Part shown: positions 3,948-63,650 of the stretch, piece by piece
Layout: every line of letters starts with the position of its first letter
Position numbering within the stretch: the first letter of the stretch is position 1
Notes under the pieces: model-generated
Database searches by the model: none
Seen by the model: only the letters and a program-made list of their open reading frames with translations
Told to the model about the DNA's origin: nothing
Translations under genes and position numbers: made by a program
Source of the DNA: Candidatus Kaiserbacteria bacterium
GTDB taxonomy: Bacteria > Patescibacteriota > Minisyncoccia > Phycocordibacterales > UBA918
Assembly (NCBI GenBank): GCA_016699245.1
Contig: CP064968.1
Location: forward strand, 89,686-153,685
Direction of reading: 5' to 3'
DNA: 64,000 nt

Positions 3948-3970
3948 AGACAGTATTGTGACACAAATAT

Positions 3971-4735
3971 TTACGTATCGCGAGTAAATCGTGTGTACCG
4001 AAGAACTCCATATTGGTCGGGATGCGTGGTAGGAGTCAGGCCTGCCATACGAGCGAATGCATGAATGGCGGTCACTTGTTCGGGTTCGTGTTCGAGATAA
4101 AGTACACCAGTAGGGGAGAGATGCTCGGGCGCACTCACTATAATTGTTTCAATGAATATCATGCCATCCTTGCCACCATAGAGAGCGAGAGCGGGTTCAT
4201 GGGTTTCGACCTCGGGCGCTACGCGCCCGAGGTTTTTATCAATATACGGAGGGTTACTCAAAATATAATCATACGTGCCAGTGATTTCATCAAAGAGCGA
4301 ACCACCAAAGATACAGGAGCGAGATGGGTCAAGCGTATTTTCGGTGAGATTTTTGAAAATCGTAGGATGGTGGTGTTCGGCTATTTCTCCAAAATCAACG
4401 TGCGACTCGGGAAGAGCATGTAATACTGCAACGCCCACACAGCCTGAGCCAGCACAGAGGTCGAGTACGTGGAGCGACTTTTCTTTTTGCATTGACATTT
4501 CTGCTATCGCTTTTTCCACCCAAAACTCAGTTTCGGTGCGGGGAATGAGAGGGCGAGCGCCTGTGAGTCTCGTTGTAGGAATGTCGAGAAAAATGGTGGT
4601 TCCTAAAAAGGCAACTGAGCCAATTACATATGCAAGCGGCTCACCATTTTTCAGACGCATACAGTCGGTGGAAAAACCTTCGGATTTCTCACCGTGGTAT
4701 TTTTCCTTGAGTAGCCACTCTTCATCTTGATTCAT
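3971..4735 (-). CDS. prmC: release-factor glutamine N5-methyltransferase PrmC/HemK
   Basis: LSNPPYI (NPPY) catalytic motif and LDLCAGSG SAM-binding motif. Confidence 0.8.
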   Translation of the reverse strand: MNQDEEWLLKEKYHGEKSEGFSTDCMRLKNGEPLAYVIGSVAFLGTTIFLDIPTTRLTGARPLIPRTETEFWVEKAIAEMSMQKEKSLHVLDLCAGSGCVGVAVLHALPESHVDFGEIAEHHHPTIFKNLTENTLDPSRSCIFGGSLFDEITGTYDYILSNPPYIDKNLGRVAPEVETHEPALALYGGKDGMIFIETIIVSAPEHLSPTGVLYLEHEPEQVTAIHAFARMAGLTPTTHPDQYGVLRYTRFTRDT

Positions 4736-4826
4736 ATTGAGACTATACGTGTTTCGAATCTATTACTCAAGATTGATATACACAAGAGTACGGGACTGTT
4801 TGCTGGCACGTGGTACAATTTTTGAT

Positions 4827-5846: not shown

Positions 5847-5850
5847 ATAA

Positions 5851-5880
5851 AAAGACGAGGTACTGACCCCGTCTTTTACT
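5851..5880. terminator. bidirectional hairpin terminator between convergent fba and rpmG
   Basis: aagacgagg-tactga-ccccgtctt stem (8/9 bp) flanked by A- and T-runs. Confidence 0.4.
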
Positions 5881-6054
5881 TTATTTTTTCTCTTTGTAAA
5901 CAGTGTGTTTTTGTGCGATTGGGTTGAATTTCTTGAACTCAAATTTCTTGTCAGCGAGCTTCTTTTTATTCTTTCTTGTGTAATACGTATGACCTTTTCC
6001 GACACCTTTTGAGTCGCCCTGAGAGACAAGTTTAATTAGTTTATCCTGTGACAT
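5881..6054 (-). CDS. rpmG: 50S ribosomal protein L33 (Cys-less form)
   Basis: 57-aa ORF missing from the supplied ORF track. MSQDKLIKLVSQGDSKGVGKGHTYYTRKNKKKLADKKFEFKKFNPIAQKHTVYKEKK aligns closely with E. coli L33 (IKLVS..GTGHFYTTTKNKR...KLELRKFDP..RQHVIYKE). Confidence 0.8.
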   Translation of the reverse strand: MSQDKLIKLVSQGDSKGVGKGHTYYTRKNKKKLADKKFEFKKFNPIAQKHTVYKEKK

Positions 6055-6117
6055 AGTGGGACGATAGTACCAAAAATAAGGATATTAGTCAACGAAGCGT
6101 GGTTGGGTGCTCCCGCC

Positions 6118-6933
6118 CTAAAACCGCTTGGTCCAAAGACCGGTCTTTGGACCAAAGGAGAAGTAGCGGCCGATTTTGGTGCGGTGGATAGAATATGCGA
6201 GTCCGCCTGTACCCAATTGTGCTCCCACATACCCCGCTAACGAGCGCATATACGTACCCGAAGAGGCGACAATGGTGACGGTGATGAGGGGGAGTACTGA
6301 AGGTGCTTCAGTTGCAAACTGGTTCCATGACGCGCGCACGTCGTCGCGTCTAAAGTCTGCTCCGAGTGCCTTGCTTTTCTCAGTGACTTTGGGAATAGTT
6401 TCGATTTTTGTACGGACGTTCTCAAGTACCTCCTCGCGTGTTACCATGCGCACACTTTGGAGTGTGACATGGTGAATAATGGAGTGCTTCATAGGGATTT
6501 CAATCTCATGAAGGCGTTTTTCAAGTGCCCAGGTATGGAGTGGTTTGCCACGTACTGTTTTAGATGAGAAGTGCGGATAGGGAAGTGAAATAGGTCCACG
6601 AAGCCGTGAGAGTGTTCCAGAGATGTCCATTCGTGTAAGGGGCGGGAGGAAACATGGCTCGATGAGTCCGAGCACATCACCTGTGTCTGATCGTGCACCA
6701 AGGAGTATTTCCACGCAGTATTCTTTATCAAATGAGTGATATTCTTTTTGCTTTTTGCACTCATCACCAATGAGAATAAGTAGTTTTCCTGACGCCATAG
6801 GGTCGAGTCGACCGGCGTAGGCAAAGGGAACGCTTGCGGGAATCCTGAGGGATTCCCGCAAGCGTTCCGCTGCCACAAGTGGCGTCTCGCCGACAGCTTT
6901 TTCTACAGTAGCCCATATAGGGTAGGGATTCAT
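6118..6933 (-). CDS. truB: tRNA pseudouridine(55) synthase TruB
   Basis: AYAGRLDPMASGKLLILIGDECK matches the TruB catalytic motif (GxLDPxAxGxL) and downstream KEY...GARSDTGD resembles E. coli TruB. The 3' end overlaps a perfect 28-bp palindrome (6127-6154), so the exact C-terminus is uncertain. Confidence 0.65.
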   Translation of the reverse strand: MNPYPIWATVEKAVGETPLVAAERLRESLRIPASVPFAYAGRLDPMASGKLLILIGDECKKQKEYHSFDKEYCVEILLGARSDTGDVLGLIEPCFLPPLTRMDISGTLSRLRGPISLPYPHFSSKTVRGKPLHTWALEKRLHEIEIPMKHSIIHHVTLQSVRMVTREEVLENVRTKIETIPKVTEKSKALGADFRRDDVRASWNQFATEAPSVLPLITVTIVASSGTYMRSLAGYVGAQLGTGGLAYSIHRTKIGRYFSFGPKTGLWTKRF

Positions 6934-29432: not shown

Positions 29433-30866
29433 ATGAGGGATATAAAATACAGAGATCACGCGGTTGCACCTATGTTATGGTCACGATACGCTACCTATTT
29501 TTTTGTGATGCTCGCTATTCTTCTTATCCCAGTCTTATTAGCATTCAAAGTAGAAGCAGACGTTGCTATTTTTCATTCAGACACGTATCTCGAGCAGGGC
29601 GTTGAGATGACGCATGAGTCAGGAACTGAAAAATATATACAGTATGAACACTTTTGGAGTGATTTTGAAGGAGTTGTTCCCGAAGATGCTCTTGTAAACA
29701 ATATTACACTCCATCTTACGTGGTCACCGGTGACGCGCGTGGTCTCTGATGGGGCAGTGGAAGATTCTCCAAAAGAGGTGACTCCAGAAAGTACTCATGA
29801 AGAGGTGATGAATGAACTACCTACGCCTGAAGAGCAATTAGGGGAATCATTGCATGAGGAACTCCCTGTAGAGCCAGACGTTGCTATTCCTGAAGAAACA
29901 GAACCTTCTTCAGAGGCGGTTATTCCTGTAGACAGTATTGATGAGCCTGAAGAAGTAATTATAGAAGAATCCACCTCTGATTCGCCTCCCGAAGCGAGTG
30001 ATAATTCATCGGAGACTGTGGGATTTGAGGAGGTTTCATGGAATCATTTGTATTCATTAGTTAATGCGCAGATTGAAGAGGAAGTTGCAACAAATACAAT
30101 AGTAATAACTGAAGGAAGTGAACCTGAAGTGATAATTACTGAGTCTATTTCGACCACTTCAGGATTTGTCTCGGAAGATATTTTGATTGAAAATCAGGCT
30201 GAGAAGTTCTTTGAAGTGCGGTATACGATTGATGGGGTGACATGGCAAGAGCTTGGGAATGTTGGATTTGATGATGCACAGGATACAGTATTTGATCTTT
30301 CACCTATAGGTATTGATGCAATACCAAACCTACGCGTTGCTATTCGATACACCGTTCGTGATGGAGAAACGACGAAGATTATTTTTGATTCAATGCGACT
30401 CGAAGTCGGATATGGAGCACCGGTCATAGAGGAAGTCGCTCCGCCCACCCTACAAAATGATAGCGAACCAAATTTTGACGTTGGTGCAATTAAGGCTGAT
30501 GTCCAATCGGAAAATATTCGAGCGGTTGTACTCGAAAGAGGAGGAGTCTTTGAGTTTTGGTACTCCGTCACTGACCCGCAATCAGGTGCAGTTTTTTGGA
30601 ATAAAATTCTTGGAGGAGGGGCTGTTGATGAGAATGCACCGATCGGTATTAAAAAACGGACGATATTTTGGCTTGATCGCAATCAACAAACACTCTTTGG
30701 GTTTGCTGTTGATGAAGAATCAATATTTGCAACTCCATTTCAAGATGACCAGGAAAGTAAAGTCTTTCTCCTTCCATTTACAGATGAAAATGGCAAGCCG
30801 TGGGAAGCACTATTTAATTCCTCAGAGAACGTACTTGAGTTCAGTAAAGTAAAAAGTGAATCATGA
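29433..30866 (+). CDS. membrane-anchored surface protein with E/P/S-rich acidic linker
   Basis: N-terminal TM (FFVMLAILLIPVLLAF), ~120-aa acidic low-complexity region, then a ~250-aa globular region; stop overlaps the start of the giant gene (ATGA). Confidence 0.5.
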   Translation: MRDIKYRDHAVAPMLWSRYATYFFVMLAILLIPVLLAFKVEADVAIFHSDTYLEQGVEMTHESGTEKYIQYEHFWSDFEGVVPEDALVNNITLHLTWSPVTRVVSDGAVEDSPKEVTPESTHEEVMNELPTPEEQLGESLHEELPVEPDVAIPEETEPSSEAVIPVDSIDEPEEVIIEESTSDSPPEASDNSSETVGFEEVSWNHLYSLVNAQIEEEVATNTIVITEGSEPEVIITESISTTSGFVSEDILIENQAEKFFEVRYTIDGVTWQELGNVGFDDAQDTVFDLSPIGIDAIPNLRVAIRYTVRDGETTKIIFDSMRLEVGYGAPVIEEVAPPTLQNDSEPNFDVGAIKADVQSENIRAVVLERGGVFEFWYSVTDPQSGAVFWNKILGGGAVDENAPIGIKKRTIFWLDRNQQTLFGFAVDEESIFATPFQDDQESKVFLLPFTDENGKPWEALFNSSENVLEFSKVKSES

Positions 30867-33800
30867 TGCGAGAGCGGCTCTTTCCATACATACGAGCGTT
30901 GTCGAAAAGACACATACTCATGGTGGGTGTTAGTTTTTTTATTATGGGCGTGTGTATTCTTGGCACACGACACCTTCTCGTTGGTGAAAAAGTTGGGCAG
31001 TTTATAAGGACGAATCGGGCGCTTGCACACTACCAATTCACCCCCACGCATGGCACCATCGTCACCGGCGCATCCACCACCATCACCTCAGCTACCGGAA
31101 ATACTACTGAAGGAGTCAATGTGGGTTCATGGAAGGGAACACTCTCCGACGATAACTATCACTGGGTCGTCGCTGGGGCAGGAGCAAGCGGACTTGATGT
31201 CAACCTCACCATGGGTGGGGTACAGTTAAACGGCGCCAACAAACTCATTGTCCAAACAGAATTTGACCTCGATGCGACCATTCTTGCAACTGAGGTACAG
31301 ATTTGTGACTGGACGTCATCAACTGATGTGGACGATGCCGCAGACAGTGAATGTACGGGTGGCGGGTGGCGTACCCTCAACACAAAAAATGAACTGCAAG
31401 GCCCGCAACGCCTCGTACACAGCACCGGTATCCCATTTCAGTGGCACCTTTATAACGGGTATTGGTCTACCGGCACGACCGGGGGAGCAGCGGTTGATAC
31501 GCCACTCACGAACTTCCTCAACGGTGCCGATCAGATGAAATTCCGATACTTCTCTGCCTCATCGAGCGTGTCCGAAATCGCCATTGACTACCTTCGTGTG
31601 TACGCGGTCGTCGACCCGGTCTATCACGCGGGAGGATTTGTACAGGAATCAGGCGGCACGCCGAGTGGCCACTATGGCAACACCTTTAGCGTCGGCCATT
31701 CCGTGACCGCACAATTCGCGGTGACTACCGGTGATAATATCTACCTCGGTGTCCCCGGTACGGTTGCGACTACATCAAACTTCTACCTCACCTTCAAGAA
31801 CGTGAAGACATACACCGGCATGAATACCATTCTCGTGAACGCCGAGACACTCTGTTCTCTCGCAACGGCTGGTCTCCAGTACCGATTCAAGATTCGCAAT
31901 TTTAATACCAGTATCTGGGAAGATATTTCACAACCACTCGACTGTTCTACCAACGGGTTTTTCAACAACTTTGCCTTAAACAACATCGTCATTGATGACT
32001 ACATCAATGCGTCAAACGAAATATGGGTGGGTGTCTCTGCGCTCTCAAACTCGACGACACAAATTCGCATCGACTCCATCTACCTCATGCTCGGCACTAC
32101 CAACACCGACACGAACAGTTGTGAAATATCATTTGGATCAAACACTGCAGGACGCATTGCCTCAAACCCCTCTGCGCCAGGAGCGGATCGTATCCAAGCA
32201 CTCACCTCAGATGGTACGTATATGTACGCTTCGGGATACGACAGTGCGGGAATCGATAATGAGTGGCGCATAGAGAAGCGCAATCTTTCCGACGGAGACC
32301 TCGTCTCGGCATTTGGTGTTGGTGGCGCAACCTCAACCGATCCCTCAGTTGGTGCCGACCAAATTTTCGCCATCGCCACAACCTCGGGTGCGATATTTGT
32401 TGCGGGGTATGACACAGCAGCGGGCACGGGGCAGTGGCGTATCGAGAAGCGCGATAGTACCGATGGTACGCTCGAAACCGCGTTTGATACGGATGGCATT
32501 ATCACCACAAATCCTTCAGCAAGCCTCGATCACATCAATGCGATTGCCACTGATGCGAGTTACCTCTACGTGGCAGGAGTTGAAAATACTACGAGTGGTA
32601 CGTGGCGCATTCATAAGTATGACATCACCACCGGTGCACTCGTTACCGCATTTGATGGAGATGGTATCGCGACGAGCACGCTTGCTGCCTCGGGCGACGA
32701 ACGACCGCAGGCGCTCAAGGTGGATGGCGACTATCTGTACATCGGGGGATACGACAACCTCTCCGGGAACATCGAGTGGCGTCTCGAGAAGCGCAACAAG
32801 ACCACCGGTGCACTTTGTGCGGGTGGAGGGGAGTGTGCCGCAGGTGCATTTGATACCGATGGTGTGGTGCAGACAAACCCCTCTTCGGGTATTGATGCAA
32901 TACGTGCACTCGCCATTACCGACGCACACGTGTTCCTTGCAGGATACGACTCATCAACCACAAACAACCAGTGGCGCATCGAAAAGCGCGATATCGCGAC
33001 CGGCGCACTCGATACTGCATTCGATACCGATGGTATTATGCAATATAACCCAAGTACCGGTGCTGACTGGATAACCGCACTCGCACTCGATGACACCACA
33101 CTCTACGCGATTGGAAATGTGAGCAACGGTGCGTGGCGTGTTGATGCTCGCGATATCACGACCGGTGCCTCGACGACGTTCTCCGGTAACGGTACGACAC
33201 TCTCTGAAGATGGTGGTGATGACCAGCCACTTGCCGTCGTACAGGAGGGTGGGTATCTCTATGTTGCAGGATACGGCACTGCTCCAGGAGACAACCAATG
33301 GCTCATCGAAAAACTTGCGACGAACACAGGGCTGCGGAGCACCGACAGCTTTGGTGCAAATGATTGCACCGGAACACGAAACATTGATATCACCGGCGGG
33401 AACAGAGATGCATGGACAATCCAGACACAAGATGAATCAACGAATCACAGTACTCCATACTATGCACTCGATACCGACGGTGATGCAGCAATTGAGGAAG
33501 CGGGATCAGCAACCATCGGGTTTTCGGTTGCGGTACCGGGAAACAGTGCTGTCACCGGTATCTACTGGGCAGGACGCGCAATGAACGGTGCAGGAGCGGG
33601 TACGGTGCGCCTTGCCGTGAAGGACTACTCAGGATTCACCGGCCTTACAGGAGGCAGAAGTCTCGTCGGTTCCTCACCAGGAATTGCTATGACATACACT
33701 GATCCCTTGATAGTTGGTGGTATTACCTCAGGAGGTATGGCAGGGTACCTCACAAACCCTGAGGATTATATTGATACCTTAAATAATGAGATGTCACTCA

Positions 33801-34270
33801 GTCTCGTGACCAACTCGGATGGTGCGAGTACCACGAATGCCGTGAACGTATGGGACTTTGCGATGGTGAGTTTTAGTTGGGTGGAGGATCCTGATCATGA
33901 AAGCGCCACGTATCAATTCACCCCCACGCATGGCACCATCGTCACCGGCGCATCCACCACCATCACCTCAGCTACCGGAAATACTACTGAAGGAGTCAAT
34001 GTGGGTTCATGGAAGGGAACACTCTCCGACGATAACTATCACTGGGTCGTCGCTGGGGCAGGAGCAAGCGGACTTGATGTCAACCTCACCATGGGTGGGG
34101 TACAGTTAAACGGCGCCAACAAACTCATTGTCCAAACAGAATTTGACCTCGATGCGACCATTCTTGCAACTGAGGTACAGATTTGTGACTGGACGTCATC
34201 AACTGATGTGGACGATGCCGCAGACAGTGAATGTACGGGTGGCGGGTGGCGTACCCTCAACACAAAATGA
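30863..34270 (+). CDS. giant surface beta-propeller protein, part 1 (N-terminal TM + repeat unit 1 + start of unit 2; truncated by TGA created by an A4 tract)
   Basis: N-terminal TM; ~60-aa repeats of form AGYD...WRIEKRDxxDGTLxTAFDTDGI resembling delta-60-type beta-propeller repeats; terminates at 34268 where copy 2 has A4 instead of A6. Confidence 0.6.
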   Translation: MMRERLFPYIRALSKRHILMVGVSFFIMGVCILGTRHLLVGEKVGQFIRTNRALAHYQFTPTHGTIVTGASTTITSATGNTTEGVNVGSWKGTLSDDNYHWVVAGAGASGLDVNLTMGGVQLNGANKLIVQTEFDLDATILATEVQICDWTSSTDVDDAADSECTGGGWRTLNTKNELQGPQRLVHSTGIPFQWHLYNGYWSTGTTGGAAVDTPLTNFLNGADQMKFRYFSASSSVSEIAIDYLRVYAVVDPVYHAGGFVQESGGTPSGHYGNTFSVGHSVTAQFAVTTGDNIYLGVPGTVATTSNFYLTFKNVKTYTGMNTILVNAETLCSLATAGLQYRFKIRNFNTSIWEDISQPLDCSTNGFFNNFALNNIVIDDYINASNEIWVGVSALSNSTTQIRIDSIYLMLGTTNTDTNSCEISFGSNTAGRIASNPSAPGADRIQALTSDGTYMYASGYDSAGIDNEWRIEKRNLSDGDLVSAFGVGGATSTDPSVGADQIFAIATTSGAIFVAGYDTAAGTGQWRIEKRDSTDGTLETAFDTDGIITTNPSASLDHINAIATDASYLYVAGVENTTSGTWRIHKYDITTGALVTAFDGDGIATSTLAASGDERPQALKVDGDYLYIGGYDNLSGNIEWRLEKRNKTTGALCAGGGECAAGAFDTDGVVQTNPSSGIDAIRALAITDAHVFLAGYDSSTTNNQWRIEKRDIATGALDTAFDTDGIMQYNPSTGADWITALALDDTTLYAIGNVSNGAWRVDARDITTGASTTFSGNGTTLSEDGGDDQPLAVVQEGGYLYVAGYGTAPGDNQWLIEKLATNTGLRSTDSFGANDCTGTRNIDITGGNRDAWTIQTQDESTNHSTPYYALDTDGDAAIEEAGSATIGFSVAVPGNSAVTGIYWAGRAMNGAGAGTVRLAVKDYSGFTGLTGGRSLVGSSPGIAMTYTDPLIVGGITSGGMAGYLTNPEDYIDTLNNEMSLSLVTNSDGASTTNAVNVWDFAMVSFSWVEDPDHESATYQFTPTHGTIVTGASTTITSATGNTTEGVNVGSWKGTLSDDNYHWVVAGAGASGLDVNLTMGGVQLNGANKLIVQTEFDLDATILATEVQICDWTSSTDVDDAADSECTGGGWRTLNTK

Positions 34271-36770
34271 ACTGCAAGGCCCGCAACGCCTCGTACACAG
34301 CACCGGTATCCCATTTCAGTGGCACCTTTATAACGGGTATTGGTCTACCGGCACGACCGGGGGAGCAGCGGTTGATACGCCACTCACGAACTTCCTCAAC
34401 GGTGCCGATCAGATGAAATTCCGATACTTCTCTGCCTCATCGAGCGTGTCCGAAATCGCCATTGACTACCTTCGTGTGTACGCGGTCGTCGACCCGGTCT
34501 ATCACGCGGGAGGATTTGTACAGGAATCAGGCGGCACGCCGAGTGGCCACTATGGCAACACCTTTAGCGTCGGCCATTCCGTGACCGCACAATTCGCGGT
34601 GACTACCGGTGATAATATCTACCTCGGTGTCCCCGGTACGGTTGCGACTACATCAAACTTCTACCTCACCTTCAAGAACGTGAAGACATACACCGGCATG
34701 AATACCATTCTCGTGAACGCCGAGACACTCTGTTCTCTCGCAACGGCTGGTCTCCAGTACCGATTCAAGATTCGCAATTTTAATACCAGTATCTGGGAAG
34801 ATATTTCACAACCACTCGACTGTTCTACCAACGGGTTTTTCAACAACTTTGCCTTAAACAACATCGTCATTGATGACTACATCAATGCGTCAAACGAAAT
34901 ATGGGTGGGTGTCTCTGCGCTCTCAAACTCGACGACACAAATTCGCATCGACTCCATCTACCTCATGCTCGGCACTACCAACACCGACACGAACAGTTGT
35001 GAAATATCATTTGGATCAAACACTGCAGGACGCATTGCCTCAAACCCCTCTGCGCCAGGAGCGGATCGTATCCAAGCACTCACCTCAGATGGTACGTATA
35101 TGTACGCTTCGGGATACGACAGTGCGGGAATCGATAATGAGTGGCGCATAGAGAAGCGCAATCTTTCCGACGGAGACCTCGTCTCGGCATTTGGTGTTGG
35201 TGGCGCAACCTCAACCGATCCCTCAGTTGGTGCCGACCAAATTTTCGCCATCGCCACAACCTCGGGTGCGATATTTGTTGCGGGGTATGACACAGCAGCG
35301 GGCACGGGGCAGTGGCGTATCGAGAAGCGCGATAGTACCGATGGTACGCTCGAAACCGCGTTTGATACGGATGGCATTATCACCACAAATCCTTCAGCAA
35401 GCCTCGATCACATCAATGCGATTGCCACTGATGCGAGTTACCTCTACGTGGCAGGAGTTGAAAATACTACGAGTGGTACGTGGCGCATTCATAAGTATGA
35501 CATCACCACCGGTGCACTCGTTACCGCATTTGATGGAGATGGTATCGCGACGAGCACGCTTGCTGCCTCGGGCGACGAACGACCGCAGGCGCTCAAGGTG
35601 GATGGCGACTATCTGTACATCGGGGGATACGACAACCTCTCCGGGAACATCGAGTGGCGTCTCGAGAAGCGCAACAAGACCACCGGTGCACTTTGTGCGG
35701 GTGGAGGGGAGTGTGCCGCAGGTGCATTTGATACCGATGGAGTGGTGCAGACAAACCCCTCTGCTGGTGTCGATACAATACGCGCACTCGCCATTACCGA
35801 CACACATGTTTTCGTTGCAGGATACGACTCCTCAACCACGAACAACCAGTGGCGCATCGAAAAGCGCGATATCGCGACCGGCGCACTTGAAACTGCATTC
35901 GATACCGATGGTATTATGCAATATAACCCAAGTACCGGTGCTGACTGGATAACCGCACTCGCACTCGATGACACCACACTCTACGCGATTGGAAATGTGA
36001 GCAACGGTGCGTGGCGTGTTGATGCCCGTGACATAACAACAGGTGCCTCGACGACGTTCTCCGGTAACGGTACGACACTCTCTGAAGATGGTGGTGATGA
36101 CCAGCCACTTGCCGTCGTACAGGAGGGTGGGTATCTCTATGTTGCAGGATACGGCACTGCTCCAGGAGACAACCAATGGCTCATCGAAAAACTTGCGACG
36201 AACACAGGGCTGCGGAGCACCGACAGCTTTGGTGCAAATGATTGCACCGGAACACGAAACATTGATATCACCGGCGGGAACAGAGATGCATGGACAATCC
36301 AGACACAAGATGAATCAACGAATCACAGTACTCCATACTATGCACTCGATACCGACGGTGATGCAGCAATTGAGGAAGCGGGATCAGCAACCATCGGGTT
36401 TTCGGTTGCGGTACCGGGAAACAGTGCTGTCACCGGTATCTACTGGGCAGGACGCGCAATGAACGGTGCAGGAGCGGGTACGGTGCGCCTTGCCGTGAAG
36501 GACTACTCAGGATTCACCGGCCTTACAGGAGGCAGAAGTCTCGTCGGTTCCTCACCAGGAATTGCTATGACATACACTGATCCCTTGATAGTTGGTGGTA
36601 TTACCTCAGGAGGTATGGCAGGGTACCTCACAAACCCTGAGGATTATATTGATACCTTAAATAATGAGATGTCACTCAGTCTCGTAACGAACTCGGATGG
36701 TGCAAGTACCACGAATGCCGTGAACGTATGGGACTTTGCGATGGTGAGTTTTAGTTGGGTGGAGCCGGAA
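31023..36770 (+). repeat. 2 x 2,874-bp near-identical tandem duplication inside the giant surface gene
   Basis: Copy 1 31023-33896 and copy 2 33897-36770; the 5' ~1.85 kb is identical apart from the A-tract, with clustered substitutions in the 3' third. Confidence 0.9.
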
Positions 36771-37172
36771 CCCGTGCCAGTCTATTCGATATCAATTACC
36801 AGTGATGGAACAATACAGTATGGGTTTGTAGACCTGAGTGTAGCGAGTTCGACCGTTGGTGGGGATACACAGGCAGCAGAAAATACGGGAAGCCTTAATG
36901 AAAAAATAAATATTCGTTCAAGTAACGCTCTTGGCGGGACGAGCTGGCTTCTTGCATCAGTAATTGGAAGTAATCAGTATACTCATGAATTTTCGACAAC
37001 GACGGGAGTAACGTGGAAAACAATGCCCGATAGCAGTACATACGTGGTTGCAGATCCGTCTGTGACACCAAGTGGTACGGTAGATTTTGATTTTAGACTC
37101 ACGATGCCAAGCGGCACCACTGATTTTGTTGAAAAATCAATTACTATTACAGTCCAGGCCGTCGCCCCATAG
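34266..37172 (+). CDS. giant surface beta-propeller protein, part 2 (remainder of repeat unit 2 + unique C-terminal ~130-aa domain)
   Basis: Frame continuing copy 2 after the A-tract shift (ORF-track 34128..37172; the first ~45 residues of that ORF are out-of-frame read-through). Confidence 0.6.
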   Translation, partial: NELQGPQRLVHSTGIPFQWHLYNGYWSTGTTGGAAVDTPLTNFLNGADQMKFRYFSASSSVSEIAIDYLRVYAVVDPVYHAGGFVQESGGTPSGHYGNTFSVGHSVTAQFAVTTGDNIYLGVPGTVATTSNFYLTFKNVKTYTGMNTILVNAETLCSLATAGLQYRFKIRNFNTSIWEDISQPLDCSTNGFFNNFALNNIVIDDYINASNEIWVGVSALSNSTTQIRIDSIYLMLGTTNTDTNSCEISFGSNTAGRIASNPSAPGADRIQALTSDGTYMYASGYDSAGIDNEWRIEKRNLSDGDLVSAFGVGGATSTDPSVGADQIFAIATTSGAIFVAGYDTAAGTGQWRIEKRDSTDGTLETAFDTDGIITTNPSASLDHINAIATDASYLYVAGVENTTSGTWRIHKYDITTGALVTAFDGDGIATSTLAASGDERPQALKVDGDYLYIGGYDNLSGNIEWRLEKRNKTTGALCAGGGECAAGAFDTDGVVQTNPSAGVDTIRALAITDTHVFVAGYDSSTTNNQWRIEKRDIATGALETAFDTDGIMQYNPSTGADWITALALDDTTLYAIGNVSNGAWRVDARDITTGASTTFSGNGTTLSEDGGDDQPLAVVQEGGYLYVAGYGTAPGDNQWLIEKLATNTGLRSTDSFGANDCTGTRNIDITGGNRDAWTIQTQDESTNHSTPYYALDTDGDAAIEEAGSATIGFSVAVPGNSAVTGIYWAGRAMNGAGAGTVRLAVKDYSGFTGLTGGRSLVGSSPGIAMTYTDPLIVGGITSGGMAGYLTNPEDYIDTLNNEMSLSLVTNSDGASTTNAVNVWDFAMVSFSWVEPEPVPVYSISITSDGTIQYGFVDLSVASSTVGGDTQAAENTGSLNEKINIRSSNALGGTSWLLASVIGSNQYTHEFSTTTGVTWKTMPDSSTYVVADPSVTPSGTVDFDFRLTMPSGTTDFVEKSITITVQAVAP

Positions 37173-45810: not shown

Positions 45811-46323
45811 CTATGCAAGACTGATGATGACGCGTCGATCTACTTTCTGCTCAATCGGTACTTGAAGCAGGTCGTCGGTGGTAACTTTAGTCCAGCCCCG
45901 TTCTGGATCAGCTGTCTCATAGTCAGTGATTGCGAAAACGAATGAATGATTTCCCACCGTTACCGTCACGCGGTCATTCACTTCGCCTGTATCTGCGCCC
46001 GGCTTGAAAGCATTGTACAGCTTAGTCGCCAGTGTGAACATGTCAATACTTTCATCTTTGATGACTTCAGCCGCTTGCGCTGTCACACCTACATACCCGC
46101 CATCGAAAGCACAGTGACAAAAGTCTTCCGGGCCAGGTTCGCGCTTGTCGATCCTGATGTCTTGCATGAGGAAGTATGCGTCATTGAACGTCATTTGAAA
46201 ACATTCAGAAAACAAGCAAGCTGGAACTTTTACTACAAGGAACAAATGATTTTCTCGTGCTATCTCCTCTTTTTTCACTTTGTATCTCCTTTGATAAAAT
46301 GTGCCGGAACTGCAACTATGCAA
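45811..46323 (-). CDS. hypothetical protein
   Basis: 170-aa ORF; an internal Met at 46194 would give a 128-aa product. Confidence 0.25.
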   Translation of the reverse strand: MHSCSSGTFYQRRYKVKKEEIARENHLFLVVKVPACLFSECFQMTFNDAYFLMQDIRIDKREPGPEDFCHCAFDGGYVGVTAQAAEVIKDESIDMFTLATKLYNAFKPGADTGEVNDRVTVTVGNHSFVFAITDYETADPERGWTKVTTDDLLQVPIEQKVDRRVIISLA

Positions 46324-46368
46324 TAACTCTCAGTAAATTGCAAATTTATAACTGATACATGAAACATT

Positions 46369-46437
46369 AATTTAAACAGGAAAGACCTGTTTAGTTAGGA
46401 AGGACCTTAGTTTAAACAGGAAGGACCTGTTTAGTTA
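46369..46437. repeat. two tandem copies of a 28-bp palindromic motif gtttaaacaggaaRgacctgtttagttag
   Basis: Inverted core AAACAGG-N6-CCTGTTT; a third copy lies at 47146-47175 on the other side of hicAB. Confidence 0.7.
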
Positions 46438-46455
46438 GATGCCTGTCGACAAAAA

Positions 46456-46504
46456 TTAAAACCCCAACAACCCGGAATGTGAATTCTGTTTGTTGGGGTT
46501 TTGT
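46456..46504. terminator. bidirectional rho-independent terminator
   Basis: aaccccaacaa...ttgttggggtt 11-bp stem flanked by an A-run and a T-run; downstream of hicA. Confidence 0.55.
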
Positions 46505-46540
46505 AGAGAGGTAATGGGGTCAGCTACCATTTCTCCATAT

Positions 46541-46765
46541 CTACTTAAAAGATTCTCTTGCAATTCCACTCATGCGAATAATGGAAAGTAATGTTCCCTT
46601 CGGTAAGTCCTTTGAATGATATGGCAGAGTCACACGCTTTTTTGAAATTGAGTGATACATAATGTGATGACTTCCTGTTGTATGATCTATCTCAAAACCA
46701 TTCTCTTGCAGAATTGTGAGAACGTTTTTAGACGTCAATGCAGGCAACTTAGGCATGTCACACAT
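46541..46765 (-). CDS. hicA: HicA toxin (mRNA interferase, YcfA-like)
   Basis: 74 aa; LTSKNVLTILQENGFEIDHTTGSHHIMYH resembles HicA; 8-bp overlap with upstream hicB. Confidence 0.7.
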   Translation of the reverse strand: MCDMPKLPALTSKNVLTILQENGFEIDHTTGSHHIMYHSISKKRVTLPYHSKDLPKGTLLSIIRMSGIARESFK

Positions 46766-47018
46766 TCATTACCCTCGGGAGAGAAATGAGGCTTACGTAG
46801 TTTTCTTTATCTGAAGGTATTGGTTCGTTGTGTTTTGCAAGCGAGGCAACATATCCTTCTATGGCATCGAGTATCATTTTTTTTGCCTCAGCAATGTCTT
46901 TACCATAACTAACACAACCCGGTAGCGACGGGACTTGAGCCGTAAACCCCCCTTCCGGTTCGTGGGTAAATATGACGTTATATTGTAGGGTTTCTTCTTT
47001 CATATATATAGGATACAT
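46758..47018 (-). CDS. hicB: HicB antitoxin (UPF0150/RNase-H-like fold)
   Basis: 86 aa; YNVIFTHEPEGGFTAQVPSLPGCVSYGKDIAEAKKMILDAIEGYV matches HicB. Confidence 0.65.
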   Translation of the reverse strand: MYPIYMKEETLQYNVIFTHEPEGGFTAQVPSLPGCVSYGKDIAEAKKMILDAIEGYVASLAKHNEPIPSDKENYVSLISLPRVMNV

Positions 47019-47145
47019 GAAAACAATAATTTCATCAACAAAAATTATTGTTTCGGTGAGTACTTTTTGCCAATCAGTACAATCTATCCATCACTTCGTA
47101 TCAAAATGACACGATGCTAACTGCTAAATGATACGATACAACTTT

Positions 47146-47175
47146 TTTGTTTAAACAGGAAGGATCTGTTTAGAT
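47146..47175. repeat. third copy of the AAACAGG/CCTGTTT palindromic motif upstream of hicB
   Basis: tgtttaaacaggaaggatctgtttagatgtttag. Confidence 0.6.
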
Positions 47176-47182
47176 GTTTAGA

Positions 47183-48024
47183 TTACGAAACGAAAAATTC
47201 TATGTATCGCTTTTTCCAGGATGATTTGAATTGAGCAACAGGAATAGAACCATTGCCTCTTGGCTCCGCGGGGTCATTATAGAAAAGCGTATCATCCTTG
47301 ATACCATTTACAATTACTAAATGCGGAATGGGGTTGGTGGGAGTGAAGGTGTAATGCACCGATGCCATCACTGGTCCTACGATGAGTGCTTTTTCAAATG
47401 CAGCAAATGCGACATCCATGCTCGAACCTCCAAAATCGTGCGTGGTGCCGTCGAGACCATATTTGTGTGAGACTTCTATAAGTCCTGCGTAGGTCCATCC
47501 TGCACTCGAGTATGCATCTATAGCAATACCTTCCTTGAGAAGTGTGTCGACTGAGGTGAATGAATCGGGATTATAAAACTTAATGAGCATTGCAAGACTT
47601 GCAATACCACAACCTATTTTCTTCCACGCAGGCGCTGTGATGTCGGTGAGTTGAGAATAGAAGGGAACGGAGAAGACATCTGTCTTTTGTGTAACATCAG
47701 CCTTCGGTTGTTGCACTTTTCTTTCACTTCTATAACCACTTCTGGGGTGGGCTCTGGCTCAGGAAGTATTTCTGGTAGCGACTGTTCTTCAGTCATTACT
47801 TCTTCTTCTGTATCTATTTCTGCAATAGTCTGAGACGAGGAAGTAGCAACCTCGGTAATAGGTGCACTAATGGTGGTAGCAGGGATAGGAGCGCTGTACG
47901 TAATGGTAGTGCTTGGTATAAGCCCAAGTGCGATAAAAATCGCACTTGCGCACACAACACCAACAATGAACTTTGTATTCAGCAAAACGTTATCAGTGTA
48001 CCGTGTGAGTACCCTTGCCAACAA
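47183..48024 (-). CDS. membrane-anchored C39-like (papain-fold) cysteine peptidase, apparently frameshifted
   Basis: ORF 47614..48024 gives a TM segment plus Thr/Pro/Glu-rich linker; ORF 47183..47716 gives GCGIASLAMLIKFY (C39_2-type catalytic Cys) and a later His; the two frames overlap by ~100 nt. Confidence 0.5.
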
Positions 48025-57567: not shown

Positions 57568-59086
57568 TTATGGGTGTACGAGGCATCTGCCGGTCATTAC
57601 TGCCGGCTGTGGAAGATTCATTAAGTGAAGGATAGTGGGCGCCACATCAGCGAGTGTCCCGTTTTCAATTTTTTCTTCATGGGAGGTCACAATAACGGGG
57701 ACGTGGTTGGTGGTGTGTGCGGTATGCATTTCACCCGTCTCATGGTTGATATTTTCTTCTGCATTGCCATGATCTGCGGTAATGAGCACAACCCCATCGT
57801 GTGAAAGTGCCGCCTCCACCACACGCTTCAATTGCGTATCCACTTCTGTAAGTGCAATGTGGAGCGCTTCTGTATTGCCGGTGTGTCCCACCATGTCGGC
57901 ATTAGCGAAATTGATAAAAATGAAGTCAGTTCCTTTCTCTATGGATTCGAGCGCCTTATCAGCAATTTCTTTTGCACGCATTTTTGGCGCGAGGTCATGC
58001 GTGAGTACGTCTTTGCGACTCGGTACGAGAATGTGCTCCTCACCAGGGTAGGGAAGTTCATGGCAGCAATTGAGAAAGAATGTTGCATGCGCATACTTTT
58101 CTGTTTCGGCAATGTGTGCCTGTGAAAGTCCGGCATCAGAAACTTCTTTTGCGAGCGTTGTCGTAATTTCTATTGGAGGGAATGCAACATGCGCAGGAAT
58201 TCCTTTCTCGTACTCGGTAAGTGTCACAAAACACAAATCCTTCTTCTCTGCATGCGTCACAATTTTACTCGAGAGCATGCGCGCTCGATCAGAGCGGAAA
58301 TTAAAAAAAGAAAATTCCATCATGATCCATCACCGTGTACTGGTGCCCCTCTTCATCAAGGAAAACGGTGGGTTTCACATGCTCATCAAAGACACCCTCT
58401 GCATACAACTTCTCCATTATCTCAGATGGTCTGCATGTATGCTCAGTGTTATCACATCGTCCATGGAAAATTGCATCCTCAACACGCTCGAGCCTGTCCC
58501 AGTTGTTGTCTCTATCCATTGCATAGAAACGTCCGGCGGTGGTGGCAATAAATCCGATGCCTAAATCATCGATGACGTCCTCAAGTTCCTTGAGATACTG
58601 TGCTGCACTTCGTGGCCCTGTGTCGCGTCCGTCGGTAAATGCGTGAATGGCTATTTTTGTTACACCCGCCTCTTTTGCCGCCTTCATAAAAGCGTACAGA
58701 TGGCTACTGTGACTATGGATTCCTCCCGGGGAGAGGAGCCCTTTGATATGCAACACCGAATCGTGCTTTTTTACATGGTCAAATAGTTTTATAAAAGCAG
58801 GATTCGTCGCAAACTCATTATTTTTTACCGCCTTTGATATGCGGAGTAAGTCGGTATCAATAATTTTACCTGCACCGATGGTCATGTGTCCCACTTCACT
58901 ATTTCCCATCTGGCCAGAGGGAAGACCGACACTCTCCGAACTTGCTTCAAGAAGCGCATGAGGATAGGTATTCCACAAGGAATCAAAAAATGGTGTCGGC
59001 GCTTCTGCTATGGCATTATCGCGCGTCTCTTCGCGATGCCCCCATCCATCGAGAACAATGAGAACCGTTGGTTTTTTATCGTGCAT
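57568..59086 (-). CDS. gpmI: 2,3-bisphosphoglycerate-independent phosphoglycerate mutase, split by a -1/+1 frameshift at a T7/A7 tract near 58294-58325
   Basis: N-terminal half (58301..59086: VLDGWGH, catalytic Ser region) and C-terminal half (57568..58323: FNFRSDRAR...DHGN) together equal a full ~510-aa iPGM; junction ...IFF|FNFR falls in a homopolymer run. Confidence 0.8.
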
Positions 59087-59150
59087 ATCAATATTTTAAA
59101 TAAGTTCCAAGTATACTACATAATTTGTGTGTATCTATAGATATGTATAT
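58950..59150. repeat. copy A of a ~190-bp diverged direct repeat (gpmI 5' end + upstream region)
   Basis: Roughly 80-85% identical to 60740-60900. Confidence 0.6.
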
Positions 59151-59206
59151 GTTAAAAAAAGATAGAAAGTTGTGTCCTGTTGCTCTTGAGGTCAGACATC
59201 AAAAAC

Positions 59207-60673
59207 CTATAGCGAGAGTCTATATTGTGTATAATTTAAGAAATCATTGATACTTACTAAATTACCTTGACAACTGGAACAAGAGTAAATATGAATATCT
59301 TTTGGGATAGTTCCACCATGTATGTCGAATAGTGGTACCAGGCAGTGAGGACACATATAAGGTTGCTGCGTATTGCTCCGTTGTGTACCAGAGTCTAGAT
59401 ATTTTACAAAATAATCCTTGGTGTCAATACTCGATAGTGAATAGAATGAACCTTTATCAAACCAGATGTTAATACATACACCACATACCCAGGCCTTTCT
59501 CTGTATGTCGTGTGGCCCTAATGCATCAATCTGTGTAAGTGTATGGCCGCACACGCTGCAGGCTAATAATTTTATTGGGCTATACGACTCGGTAACTGTA
59601 GGGTCAAAACTTTTTATTAGTCGTAACCTTTCTTCAATGAGTTGTTCTTCGAAAGATTGATCTTTTTCTGACGTACTTGCTAAAAAGAAAGGTGAGTAGT
59701 AGGCAAATTCCTGATATGTCTCATCTTGTACAATCATTAATACTTTGTTCAATGCAGAATAGAGTGCTTGTGGATGACGAGTAAGTTCAAGTGCTTTAAG
59801 GTCTGCATAAATTGCCTCACCATAATTCATGGTGTAGTAAATGAATCCCGTGATCAGTACGATAATCAAATGAATCGGGTTCATCACTAAAAAGACTAAA
59901 CCAGCCCCAATAGTGTTGTTTAATGATTTATGCTCATCTAAAAATATCCCGACGACAATTGCGACATACATTCCAAGCCATATGAGTGGTAAAAACGGGT
60001 GTATGGTTCCAAGGAGAAGTAAGAATGAGAGTAGCCCAACAACTTTAGTTATAGTAATTAACCATTCAACAGTCCTTCTCGTTGATATCTCATCGGAAAG
60101 ATAGTGGCCAATTTCATGTGCAATGTATGCTTCTGCTTCACTCACACTAAAATATTGAAGTAAACTCGTACTGACATGTAGTTGTGGGGCACCAATAGTC
60201 CTTAGGTGTAAGAAGAGTTTTGGCATATTTCCTGCATACATAATCAGTTGTGGCGTTTCGATGCCTGCCGTTTTTGATAAGTTTTCTAGAATTTTTTGTA
60301 TCGTAACTCTGTCGACGTGTTTTGTGTGATCAGTATGTGTTCCGTTTTGGACAATGAATTCTTGAGCAAAATATGCAACAACAAGAAGTATTATGCTAAA
60401 CCACACGTCATTATAAATATACGTGTCGTGCAGGTACGTCGTATGTACAAAGAGTTGATATGCCAGATACGATATGCCAAGTATCAGGAATATAAGTGCC
60501 AGAATAATATATGCGCGTTTTCTTTTTACACGATCAACAACCGTCCAATAGGTCTCATTCTTTTTATTAGAAAAAATTGTCTGACTGAATAGTTTTCCCA
60601 AATACCTCGCAATTACATCATTTTTGAATGCTAGGGGAAAGACAATTATGATATATATAAAAACAGATGACAT
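59207..60673 (-). CDS. membrane M48-family zinc metallopeptidase (HtpX-like) with C-terminal double Zn-ribbon
   Basis: AHEIGHYL (HExxH) with flanking TM helices; C-terminal CSVCGH...CGVC and CPHC...CSSC pairs. Confidence 0.65.
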   Translation of the reverse strand: MSSVFIYIIIVFPLAFKNDVIARYLGKLFSQTIFSNKKNETYWTVVDRVKRKRAYIILALIFLILGISYLAYQLFVHTTYLHDTYIYNDVWFSIILLVVAYFAQEFIVQNGTHTDHTKHVDRVTIQKILENLSKTAGIETPQLIMYAGNMPKLFLHLRTIGAPQLHVSTSLLQYFSVSEAEAYIAHEIGHYLSDEISTRRTVEWLITITKVVGLLSFLLLLGTIHPFLPLIWLGMYVAIVVGIFLDEHKSLNNTIGAGLVFLVMNPIHLIIVLITGFIYYTMNYGEAIYADLKALELTRHPQALYSALNKVLMIVQDETYQEFAYYSPFFLASTSEKDQSFEEQLIEERLRLIKSFDPTVTESYSPIKLLACSVCGHTLTQIDALGPHDIQRKAWVCGVCINIWFDKGSFYSLSSIDTKDYFVKYLDSGTQRSNTQQPYMCPHCLVPLFDIHGGTIPKDIHIYSCSSCQGNLVSINDFLNYTQYRLSL

Positions 60674-60750: not shown

Positions 60751-60852
60751 TCAAAAAAGTGCAAGAGTTTCCGCAATGGCACTATCGAGAGTTTCCTCGC
60801 GATGCTCCCACTCGTCGAGAACAATAAAAATCGTTGGTTTTTTATCGTGCAT
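60751..60852 (-). pseudogene. duplicated 5' fragment of gpmI (33 codons: MHDKKPTIFIVLDEWEHREETLDSAIAETLALF*)
   Basis: Copy B of the direct repeat; cf. authentic [33 protein letters not shown]. Confidence 0.55.
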
Positions 60853-61017
60853 ATCAATGTGTTACATAAGTCCCAAGTATACTACATAATCAACATGCAT
60901 ATAAAAATGTATGTATGCAAAGAAAGAGTAAGGGACTGTAATTTGCTCACCGTATGAGGTGTGATTTTTATTTATTTCCTGAACGCGGACTGGTGTATAA
61001 TGAAAAACCGTTCGCAA

Positions 61018-61886: not shown

Positions 61887-62177
61887 TCAACTGAGAAGTG
61901 TACCAACGGCGACAAGGAAGTTGCCCACTGTGCCGGTCCCAAAAAGGAAGCCGAGTAGAGTGCAAACAGCAACCGCAGGCCATAAGATATAAAAACCCAA
62001 ACGGTGATCATGCCAGCGATGGCCAAACCCCCAATGTCCCACAGCCTCGGAAACGATAACAATCCCAAGTGCTCCAAAAAGAACAATCATCCATGCGGTT
62101 ACGAGTATGGGAGAAAATATACCCAACCCAAGACCGACGATAAAACCAACAAAATACAGAAACAGTAACTCTAACAT
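61887..62177 (-). CDS. small hypothetical membrane protein (His-rich C-terminal half)
   Basis: 96 aa, 3 TM helices; a truncated paralog lies at 63367..63570. Confidence 0.4.
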   Translation of the reverse strand: MLELLFLYFVGFIVGLGLGIFSPILVTAWMIVLFGALGIVIVSEAVGHWGFGHRWHDHRLGFYILWPAVAVCTLLGFLFGTGTVGNFLVAVGTLLS

Positions 62178-62260
62178 CAGGATTCTCCTTTAAATAACAC
62201 GAAAGCAAAGCAGATTCTATCACTCGTATTGACTACTGTATAGAGACACTCTTTCCTTTG
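62031..62260. repeat. copy A of a ~225-bp direct repeat (~93% identical) flanking the fic gene
   Basis: Matches 63424-63650; covers the 5' half and upstream region of the small membrane-protein gene. Confidence 0.8.
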
Positions 62261-62448
62261 CATACTGTTTCTAAAATATTATCATTTAGAAACTGCCTAT
62301 GGATTTTCTGATGTATGTATATCACTATGCTACTCGTCTCTCATAGTAAATATTAGTGAATAAGTGTCTATTTTAACTACCTATTCACTAAACTTTGACA
62401 ATAAGGTGTGAAAACACTATAATATTAAAGGTTAATTAACTAAACATT

Positions 62449-63342
62449 ATGGCTATCACCAAACCAATCATAACGAGACTCCAAAATCTCAAGATTGCCT
62501 TTGAGACTCTCAAAAAAGGCAAAGAATCACTCTTGGTACTAGTAGATGAGGCTGAAGTGGCTGAGGCAGTCTACAACTCTAATGCTATCGAAAACTCGAC
62601 ACTCACACTCAAAGAGACAGAGAAGATTCTTTTGGAAATGGCTGTGGCTCGAGAGGTATCTGTTCGAGAAGTTTTTGAAGCAAAGAATCTCGCTCGAGTA
62701 GTTGCGTACATTAGGAACAAATCGCAAGAGCTCGAAATAAATAAAGAAGTAATTCTTTTTCTCCATCAGATGCTTATTAGTGGTATCAACGATGAGATTG
62801 CAGGCCGTTTTCGAAAGACAGGTGAATACGTTCGGGTTGGTACACATGTCGCTCCCGCACCAGAACATGTTGAAAGAATGATTGACTCATTACTTTCCGA
62901 ATATACAGGTAATCTCTCAAACTTTTTTTTGGATAAAATTGCAAAATTTCACCTCGAGTTTGAGACGATTCATCCGTTCTGTGATGGTAATGGTCGTATT
63001 GGTCGTGTCCTTATAAACTATCAATTACAAAGACTTGGGTTTCCAGGTATTATTATTCGTGATAAAGAAAAGAAAGAGTATTACAGCACCTTTACTGAAT
63101 ATCGAGACAAAAAGACAGCGAAGAAAATGGAAAAGATACTCGCTCTTGCTCTCACGGAATCACTCCATAAAAGAATCACGTATCTTAAGGGTGATAAAAT
63201 TGTGACTCTTTCTGATTATGCAAAAACTAGTCATGCATCAGCATCTGCAATCTCTAATGCTGCGCGCCGACAAAACATTCCTGCCTTCAGAGAGAAAGGT
63301 GTTTGGAAAATTGCGGAAGGATTTGTTTATAATCCAAGTTAG
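62449..63342 (+). CDS. fic: Fic/Doc family protein (AMPylase-like) with C-terminal wHTH
   Basis: HPFCDGNGRIGR matches the Fic motif HPFx(D/E)GNGRxxR. Confidence 0.8.
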   Translation: MAITKPIITRLQNLKIAFETLKKGKESLLVLVDEAEVAEAVYNSNAIENSTLTLKETEKILLEMAVAREVSVREVFEAKNLARVVAYIRNKSQELEINKEVILFLHQMLISGINDEIAGRFRKTGEYVRVGTHVAPAPEHVERMIDSLLSEYTGNLSNFFLDKIAKFHLEFETIHPFCDGNGRIGRVLINYQLQRLGFPGIIIRDKEKKEYYSTFTEYRDKKTAKKMEKILALALTESLHKRITYLKGDKIVTLSDYAKTSHASASAISNAARRQNIPAFREKGVWKIAEGFVYNPS

Positions 63343-63366
63343 AAAATTCAATATACTCTCATTCGT

Positions 63367-63570
63367 CTATGAGTACTCAGCGGTACACACCAACATTCGT
63401 GAATAGAGATACTTCAATCGAACCCAATGTCCCACAGCCTCGGAAACGATAGCAATCCCAAGTCCCCCAAAAAGAACAATCATCCATGCAGGTACGAGTA
63501 TGGGAGAAAATATACCCAACACAAGACCAACGATAAAACCAACAAGATACAGAAACAGTAATTCTAACAT
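63367..63570 (-). CDS. truncated/diverged duplicate of the small membrane protein gene
   Basis: The first 48 residues are nearly identical to the 61887..62177 product; the C-terminus differs. Confidence 0.35.
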   Translation of the reverse strand: MLELLFLYLVGFIVGLVLGIFSPILVPAWMIVLFGGLGIAIVSEAVGHWVRLKYLYSRMLVCTAEYS

Positions 63571-63650
63571 CAGGATTCTCCTTTAAATAACAAGAAATCA
63601 AAGCAGATTCTATCACTCGTATTGACTACTGTATAGAGAACTCACGGAAA
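63424..63650. repeat. copy B of the ~225-bp direct repeat flanking fic
   Basis: See copy A. Confidence 0.8.

Follow-up and report, generated by a model that had tools for sequence, protein, structure and literature searches.

What are the palindromic repeats that flank the hicBA toxin-antitoxin module of a Candidatus Kaiserbacteria genome, and do they belong to that module? The stretch under study, called the window here, comprises 64 kb of contig CP064968.1. Within it hicB and hicA are encoded on the minus strand, with one copy of a short palindrome upstream of the operon and two copies downstream, and the gene identities and orientation proposed in an earlier sequence-only reading proved correct. 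That reading regarded the palindrome as the operator of a dimeric DNA-binding protein, plausibly HicB, and its flanking position as the boundary of a small mobile cassette. Most likely, the motif is a hairpin repeat of the repetitive extragenic palindromic (REP) type. It would belong to a system of REPs and a REP-associated tyrosine transposase (RAYT) in Kaiserbacteria-like Patescibacteria, and hicBA would have been put later into a slot bounded by REPs.

The 24-mer TTTAAACAGGAAGGACCTGTTTAG has three matches in the window when up to one mismatch is allowed, all on the plus strand (46371–46394 with one mismatch, 46411–46434 with none and 47150–47173 with one). The number expected by chance is zero (100 dinucleotide-preserving shuffles), which bears out the claim that the motif flanks hicB-hicA. 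An independent repeat search of the window recovers the same three copies as a 35-nt family (D9). The dyad reads TAAACAGG-N5-CCTGTTTA and corresponds to an 8-bp stem with a 5-nt loop (AAGGA; AAAGA in copy 1). This pattern matches exactly the three copies in the window against 0.14 expected matches. The dyad symmetry described earlier is therefore real, but the spacing assigned to it is not: the N6 pattern has no match and the true spacer is N5.

For ease of comparison, the copies are numbered by position. Copy 1, TAAACAGG-AAAGA-CCTGTTTA, spans 46373–46393 on the plus strand within an extended unit of 46364–46398; it is recovered by the motif search and as a member of the repeat family, and forms the 8-bp stem on either strand of single-stranded DNA. 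Copy 2 (46413–46433, plus strand) is identical to the inter-genome consensus TAAACAGGAAGGACCTGTTTA, according to the motif search and the cross-genome alignment. Copy 3 (TAAACAGGAAGGATCTGTTTA, 47152–47172, plus strand) lies 10 nt past the stop codon of a peptidase gene and carries a C-to-T exchange at the loop-closing pair. The two downstream copies are present as first noted, but do not form a simple tandem. Their starts are 40 nt apart, and between them lies a partial REP-derived piece, AGGAAGGACCT (46397–46407, plus strand), within a 40-nt local duplication that is missing from two related contigs (L032 and L043). Even the 19 nt that separate the tandem copies are repeat-derived. With copy spacings of 40 and 739 nt and no regular unique spacers of ~30 nt, the arrangement is not an array of clustered regularly interspaced short palindromic repeats (CRISPR), in agreement with the sequence-only reading. 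The 21-nt core is a stem-loop of the imperfect-palindrome class and folds as single-stranded DNA on both strands; the tandem pair has a z of −5.2. An Rfam search of the locus at E ≤ 1 gave no match.

The motif is dispersed in other genomes. An exact-match scan for the 21-mer TAAACAGGAARGAYCTGTTTA was carried out on a set with one genome per species, which the source genome of the window lies outside. Two metagenome-assembled genomes (MAGs) of Candidatus Kaiserbacteria, JANLIJ01 and JAYVPP01, each carry the 21-mer on four contigs, with five and six exact matches as listed, respectively, where about zero would be expected by chance. At ≤2 mismatches, JAYVPP01 has eight positions at ~6 places. 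Related metagenome contigs and three MAGs with the label Saccharibacteria carry the 21-mer as well. This label is possibly a generic placement and no cross-phylum transfer is concluded from it. None of the viral contigs searched carries the motif.

In genomes of the Candidate Phyla Radiation (CPR), every copy falls either between genes or at the end of one; the neighbours include aminoacyl-tRNA synthetase, murA and murC genes as well as intrinsic terminators. They are arranged as singlets, as tandem copies and as overlapping head-to-head (inverted) doublets, TAAACAGGTCCTTCCTGTTTAACAGGAAGGACCTGTTTA. The doublets fold to an 18-bp hairpin with a z of about −9 and are REPIN-like, i.e. they resemble REP doublets forming hairpins. 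In an alignment of 36 copies the 21-nt core alone is conserved, and the flanks are A/T-rich and variable. Conservation of the repeat is thus upheld, but not its supposed length of 28 bp.

Matches in more remote groups were rejected. The 21-mer in Cyclobacteriaceae, Marinoscillum and Thermodesulfobacteriota (L007 and L011–L013) was judged a coding coincidence with a common flank. In L007, the match at 1600–1620 is located inside a nucleotidyltransferase open reading frame (ORF), presumably rfbA, and encodes KQILPVYDKP. The ORF was inspected in L007, and L011–L013 were assigned via the common flanking sequence. Rfam found nothing on L007 and L013. Single matches were put down to chance in Spirochaetes, Victivallaceae and some metagenome contigs.

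The enzyme that may go with the repeat is found in relatives. On contig L016, an ORF of 219 aa (P0001) is preceded by an inverted doublet at a distance of 27 nt; one copy overlaps its stop codon, and an inverted copy follows 134 nt downstream. P0001 matches the Pfam family Y1_Tnp with 27.4 bits (cutoff 23 bits), and its only NCBIfam match is REP_Tyr_transpos, the REP-associated tyrosine transposase (E 3e-8). About 6,700 homologues make up the corresponding family, with a typical length near 220 aa; one of them bears the name RayT in its source. Two segments are invariant in 18 members, N77-H78-F79-H80 and Y138-I-H-L-N-P143. All 18 have REP_Tyr_transpos as their sole NCBIfam match (best E 1.7e-13).

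Orthologues of P0001 with 56–58% amino-acid identity are present in L026–L029. The gene order at L016, L026 and L029 is the same: a 664-aa protein, the Y1 gene, DUF1360, rplJ and rplL. The Y1 gene occurs once per locus read and lies beside rplJ-rplL in four assemblies (L016, L026–L028, L029). The orthologues in L026–L029 are bracketed alike, with an upstream doublet and a copy over the stop codon, by a variant that has the same stem and a TCGGA loop. A REP runs over the final codons and the stop of the RAYT-like gene at 1286–1306 of L016, 3642–3662 of L026 and 10642–10662 of L029. The hairpin thus encodes the C-terminus of the Y1 protein, ...PKQEGPV* in L016 and ...NKQVGPV* in the orthologues with the TCGGA loop, with one residue altered by the loop variant. 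Repeat and Y1 orthologue co-vary. A syntenic, apparently single-copy Y1 gene tracked by its repeat is the defining layout of a REPtron. RAYT, REP and REPtron architectures of this kind have been described, including low-copy groups (PMC5581495, PMC6006769), and some RAYT subclasses also occur without canonical REPs (PMC6006769).

The history of the hicBA locus can be read from close relatives. The window is 99.97% identical to the Logan contig L024. More distant relatives were retrieved via the upstream Peptidase_C39_2 gene (47183–47956, minus strand), the conserved left neighbour of the slot. This gene encodes 257 aa in L024 and is split into two ORFs in the window, where a run of four A residues at ~47721 corresponds to five in L024. 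The difference could be a homopolymer error of the assembly or a real frameshift.

In four relatives (L030, L031, L032 and L043; peptidase 88–89% identical) a repeat is located directly after the peptidase stop codon, in the place of copy 3, and another follows a common terminator. Between these repeats they carry a small hydrophobic membrane-protein ORF (ORF71) and no hicBA. In a three-way alignment of L024 (as the equivalent of the window), L030 and L032, homology stops exactly after CCTGTTTA of copy 3 and restarts about 25 nt ahead of the terminator. The downstream copies differ in number: there is one in L032 and L043, two and a fragment in the window, and one with two degenerate units in L030. 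To the right of the REPs lies another unit that varies, ORF155 (45811–46277, minus strand; 155 aa, no Pfam family). It is present in the window, in L032 (82% amino-acid identity) and in L043, and absent in L030 and L031. Three other relatives (L033, L041 and L042; peptidase 77–79%) were considered as empty sites and rejected. They have no motif and unrelated downstream genes, and the region is variable rather than a clean empty site.

Because relatives keep the repeats at the same places with ORF71-type cargo, the copies in the window are residents that predate hicBA. ORF71-type cargo is the commoner and probably the older state, and hicBA is a replacement seen only in the lineage of the window. 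A recent swap of a small gene for hicBA, resolved to the base at the REP edge, supports the notion that REPs mark recombination-prone intergenic sites.

Additionally, the module itself is found in other surroundings. A HicB 98% identical to that of the window is encoded on four short contigs (L036–L039). On the three of these that reach upstream, hicBA lies behind a ParE gene, unlike the context in the window. The nucleotide identity is 93.6% over 611 bp (window 47139–46529), comprising the promoter region, hicB and hicA. No repeat was detected at hicBA of L036–L039 even at 5–6 mismatches; a shared 9-mer, AGGTCGGAC, was considered as a degenerate REP near the REP-less hicBA and judged too weak. 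An 83%-identical HicB on L040 belongs to a toxin-antitoxin island (3452–6301) with hicBA, higB/HTH_3 and a mazE-like pair, again with no REP. hicBA is a self-contained unit of 611 bp, equipped with a predicted promoter and a 12-bp inverted repeat that belong to it. Since the 93.6%-identical block occurs elsewhere without a REP, hicBA did not travel as a REP-bounded unit. The proposed cassette boundaries hold in part: the content of the slot varies and one breakpoint coincides with the hairpin edge, but the copies are resident and hicBA is found elsewhere without them.

Several observations weigh against a REP/RAYT assignment. The GTAG/CGTC foot of the hairpin is absent in the 36 aligned copies. 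Copy number is low, with single digits per MAG by near-exact search; classical REPs are present in tens to hundreds of copies. P0001 reaches 33.6 bits, below the 80-bit equivalog cutoff of NF047646, and is a relative of the curated RAYT model rather than an equivalog. A tblastn search for a RAYT gene in the 64-kb window found none, and the presumed link of the three copies in the window to an enzyme rests on the relatives. Sequence searches against solved RAYT/TnpA structures, with the single protein and with the 18-member profile, gave nothing significant. The best match, ISDra2 TnpA with E = 1.3, covers the HUH motif only. The AlphaFold2 model of the Y1 protein has a pLDDT (predicted local distance difference test) of 66 with an unmodelled N-terminus, and Foldseek against the PDB returned noise only. 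Taken together, most structural features of REP/RAYT systems are present, and the case falls short of them in the GTAG foot, the equivalog threshold and a cognate enzyme in the genome of the window.

A plausible mechanism follows by analogy to TnpA(REP) of E. coli and to IS200/IS605. The Y1 enzyme would recognise the hairpin in single-stranded DNA, and would cut and rejoin the strand beside it, giving rise to new copies and doublets. By the same analogy REP sites would be prone to recombination, which may account for a variable slot bounded by REPs, and the hairpin edge may have served as the breakpoint of the cargo swap. The copies in the window reside in two intergenic spacers, each located where a transcription unit ends, and most likely neither regulate hicBA nor form part of it. 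The module has replaced the small membrane-protein gene of the REP-bounded slot, in this lineage only. Possibly, the hairpins double as stabilisers of RNA 3' ends or as weak terminators.

The toxin gene hicA is located at 46541–46756 (minus strand) and encodes 71 aa according to the public contig, or 74 aa when started from the ATG at 46765 (Pfam HicA_toxin, 2.1e-17). The antitoxin gene hicB spans 46758–47003 on the same strand, with an alternative start at 47018, and encodes 81 aa (Pfam HicB_lk_antitox/UPF0150, 1.7e-7). In an exact database look-up the longest ORFs for HicA (74 aa) and for the split peptidase (177 aa) were unrecorded; the shorter gene calls are on record, in the same strain only. 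The complete block of promoter, inverted repeat, hicB and hicA (46529–47139, minus strand) has a GC content of 38% compared with 45% for the window. A terminator hairpin with perfect 13-bp arms, flanked by A and T runs, is located 3' of hicA at 46458–46502. As it is common to relatives that carry different cargo, this hairpin is resident and lies outside the hicBA block. A sigma-70-like promoter of hicBA, TTGGCA-18-AATAAT, is predicted from its consensus match at 47044–47073 (minus strand). The predicted −10 element is overlapped by a perfect 12-bp inverted repeat, AAACAATAATTT-N9-AAATTATTGTTT, at 47021–47053 (arms 47021–47032 and 47042–47053). L037, with its 93.6%-identical hicBA, keeps both arms unchanged.

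How do other explanations of the palindrome compare? An operator for HicB, or for another dimeric regulator of hicBA and its neighbours, would account for the dyad symmetry. On the minus strand each copy also lies upstream of some unit, copy 3 about 130–150 nt before hicB and copies 1 and 2 about 100–140 nt before ORF155. The distribution of the motif has already largely refuted this explanation. The 21-mer occurs in relatives at sites without hicAB, next to unrelated housekeeping genes (aminoacyl-tRNA synthetase, murA and murC genes) and to a transposase-like gene. It is kept at the same two positions in close relatives without hicBA, and is absent from the other hicBA copies examined (L036–L040). 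An occurrence of the motif in other places with no association to hicAB or to gene boundaries had been named as the observation that would speak against the earlier proposal; the lack of association holds for hicAB, whereas the copies are still at gene boundaries. Furthermore, HicB of the window (81 aa) aligns with the HicB model over positions 5–58 of 123 only, so that a ribbon-helix-helix (RHH) or helix-turn-helix (HTH) DNA-binding domain would not fit; the homologues found have 78–111 aa, mostly 81–85. Copy 3 begins 79 nt upstream of the predicted −35 element and does not overlap the predicted promoter, and copies 1 and 2 lie beyond the terminator. That the palindrome is the operator of HicB is thus not supported, and an operator role for any such regulator is extremely improbable. 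If hicBA is autoregulated at the DNA level, the REP is not the candidate operator and the inverted repeat at 47021–47053 is. Judged by its position, this repeat is likely the better candidate for an operator or a hairpin in the 5' untranslated region. For annotation, the lesson is that a palindrome may adjoin a toxin-antitoxin operon without serving as its operator.

The hairpin could also act at the RNA level, as a stem-loop at the 3' end that terminates transcription or protects the upstream mRNA, with selection rather than mobility as the source of its repetition. Copies are indeed found 3–10 nt past stop codons or beside intrinsic terminators (copy 3 of the window, L005, L010 and L015), copy 1 scored terminator-like on the minus strand, and stabilisation of upstream mRNA is an established effect of REPs in E. 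coli (background in PMC6006769). However, the A/T-rich 8-bp stem has little stability (about −4 to −7 kcal/mol for each hairpin with DNA parameters), a T run is usually absent and many copies would be redundant beside a much stronger terminator. The conservation of 21 nt across genomes, the loop sequence, the doublets and the bracketing of the Y1 gene with co-varying loops would all be left unexplained. As the principal role this is very unlikely, and as a secondary effect it is compatible with a REP/RAYT origin of the repeat. A further explanation takes the hairpin as a cassette-exchange site, at which the Y1 enzyme excises and inserts the DNA between two same-strand copies as one unit, in the "peel and paste" style of IS200/IS605 or in that of palindrome-associated transposable elements. 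The slot between copy 3 and copies 1 and 2 differs among close relatives with one breakpoint exactly at the stem edge, and strains differ in whether they carry ORF155. In L010, a REP and a degenerate REP of like orientation enclose a parE/phd module, and another REP directly adjoins a brnT/copG-type module. L001/L017 contain a two-gene unit with a methyltransferase gene bracketed by two copies, between putative trpS and putative aspS (names based on N-terminal sequence only). Pairs at a distance below 2 kb are far commoner than predicted from ~8 copies per genome. On the other hand, the hicBA block with 93.6% identity has no REP at either end in its other locations. The right-hand breakpoint lies ~25 nt before the terminator and not at a REP. 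The geometry is inconsistent, since the pair in L001 is inverted compared with the direct pairs around toxin-antitoxin modules, and no identical REP-bounded cargo was found at two loci. Cassette exchange at the hairpin is therefore unlikely. Equally doubtful is its wider form, in which REP and Y1 enzyme would make up a gene-cassette platform in ultra-small Patescibacteria, a single-strand, HUH-based analogue of the integron in which same-strand REP pairs would delimit the slots for toxin-antitoxin modules and other small accessory genes.

A REP/RAYT system remains the preferred explanation. Work on REP/RAYT has been done almost entirely in Proteobacteria, and no description of such a system in Patescibacteria was found in a literature search. 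The present case is a low-copy example in a reduced CPR genome. It is characterised by a 21-nt hairpin, a syntenic Y1 gene with its stop codon inside the hairpin and a loop variant that tracks the orthologue. The small repeat population makes it a tractable system for studying the role of a domesticated HUH enzyme in its host.

Other repeats and toxin-type genes were noticed along the way. A Fic/DOC-family gene (62449–63342, plus strand; Pfam E 2e-21) is located between direct repeats at 62030–62246 and 63423–63639 and is the second toxin-type gene of the window with flanking direct repeats. These repeats share a 217-nt core with 95% identity within about 225 aligned nt, and duplicate the 5' part and the upstream region of a small membrane-protein ORF on the minus strand. 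The locus (62030–63639) suggests duplication of local sequence by an insertion or a tandem event. In L010, direct copies of a 39-nt terminator hairpin (1906–1944 and 2562–2600, ~85% identical) enclose the brnT/copG-type pair and a REP; the terminator appears to have been duplicated at insertion. The window also contains a tandem duplication of 2,878 bp (30863–37172), in which 300-nt blocks are 100% identical (e.g. 31031–31330 and 33911–34210). The two giant ORFs that contain it (1135 and 1014 aa) consist of internal repeats of ~170 nt; the first of them, with 1135 aa, has no Pfam family. Finally, a direct repeat of 173 nt (58987–59159 and 60753–60925; 77% identity, 1,766 nt apart) covers the start of an iPGM-like ORF (58301–59086) with its first copy. 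Its second copy is located just past the start of the ORF at 59207–60673, which has weak M48 and zinc-ribbon matches.

Several known systems resemble the locus to different degrees. Known HicB operators, e.g. those of E. coli, Yersinia and Burkholderia, extend over the promoter, and HicB binds them through its RHH or HTH domain. What the present locus shares with them is a palindrome close to hicAB. Here, in contrast, the motif lies away from the promoter and the antitoxin lacks a domain of this kind, and the repeat at 47021–47053 fits better. The pdif modules of Acinetobacter plasmids are small modules, many of them toxin-antitoxin pairs, bracketed by short dyad sites for XerC/XerD with an 11-6-11 layout. 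Short dyad sites around small modules are likewise present here, but the sites are 8-5-8, form head-to-head doublets, surround a Y1 gene and are chromosomal.

The attC sites of integrons and their gene cassettes, which often carry toxin-antitoxin genes, are comparable as imperfect palindromes that fold in single-stranded DNA and separate small, strain-variable accessory genes, either poor in promoters or self-contained. The 21-nt core differs from the 57–141 nt of attC and has no R''/L''-L'/R' boxes, and GTTTAAAC and GTTTAG do not fit RYYYAAC/GTTRRRY. An integron attC site is thus ruled out by the perfect 21-nt hairpin and the missing attC architecture. The enzyme is an HUH nuclease and not a tyrosine recombinase. 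A Pfam scan of most neighbours at ~40.4–50.2 kb (ORFs of ≥120 aa) found no integron integrase or recombinase within about 5 kb of the locus; the neighbours scanned are AcrB, HlyD-like, flavodoxin, peptidase C39, YkuD and IspA, and two have no Pfam family. IS200/IS605 and palindrome-associated transposable elements share the HUH family of Y1 enzymes, and their same-strand subterminal hairpins resemble the direct REP pair around hicBA. Unlike in these elements, the Y1 gene is in conserved synteny and does not look mobile, and hicBA is found elsewhere without the hairpins. Neither an asymmetry of left and right ends nor a target tetranucleotide was identified at the locus.

The closest likeness in layout is to REP/REPIN and RAYT systems, i.e. 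the REPs and bacterial interspersed mosaic elements (BIMEs) of E. coli with YafM and the REPINs of Pseudomonas fluorescens SBW25. A dispersed extragenic palindrome with inverted doublets that form long hairpins is common to all of them. So are a syntenic HUH/Y1 gene bracketed by its own repeat and a repeat variant that tracks the orthologue. The present repeats differ from those systems in having no GTAG/CGTC foot and in the single-digit copies found in a very small genome. Furthermore, one copy reaches into the Y1 gene across its final codons and stop, the enzyme belongs to a distinct subfamily of ~220 aa below the equivalog cutoff, and the host is a lineage of the Patescibacteria (CPR).

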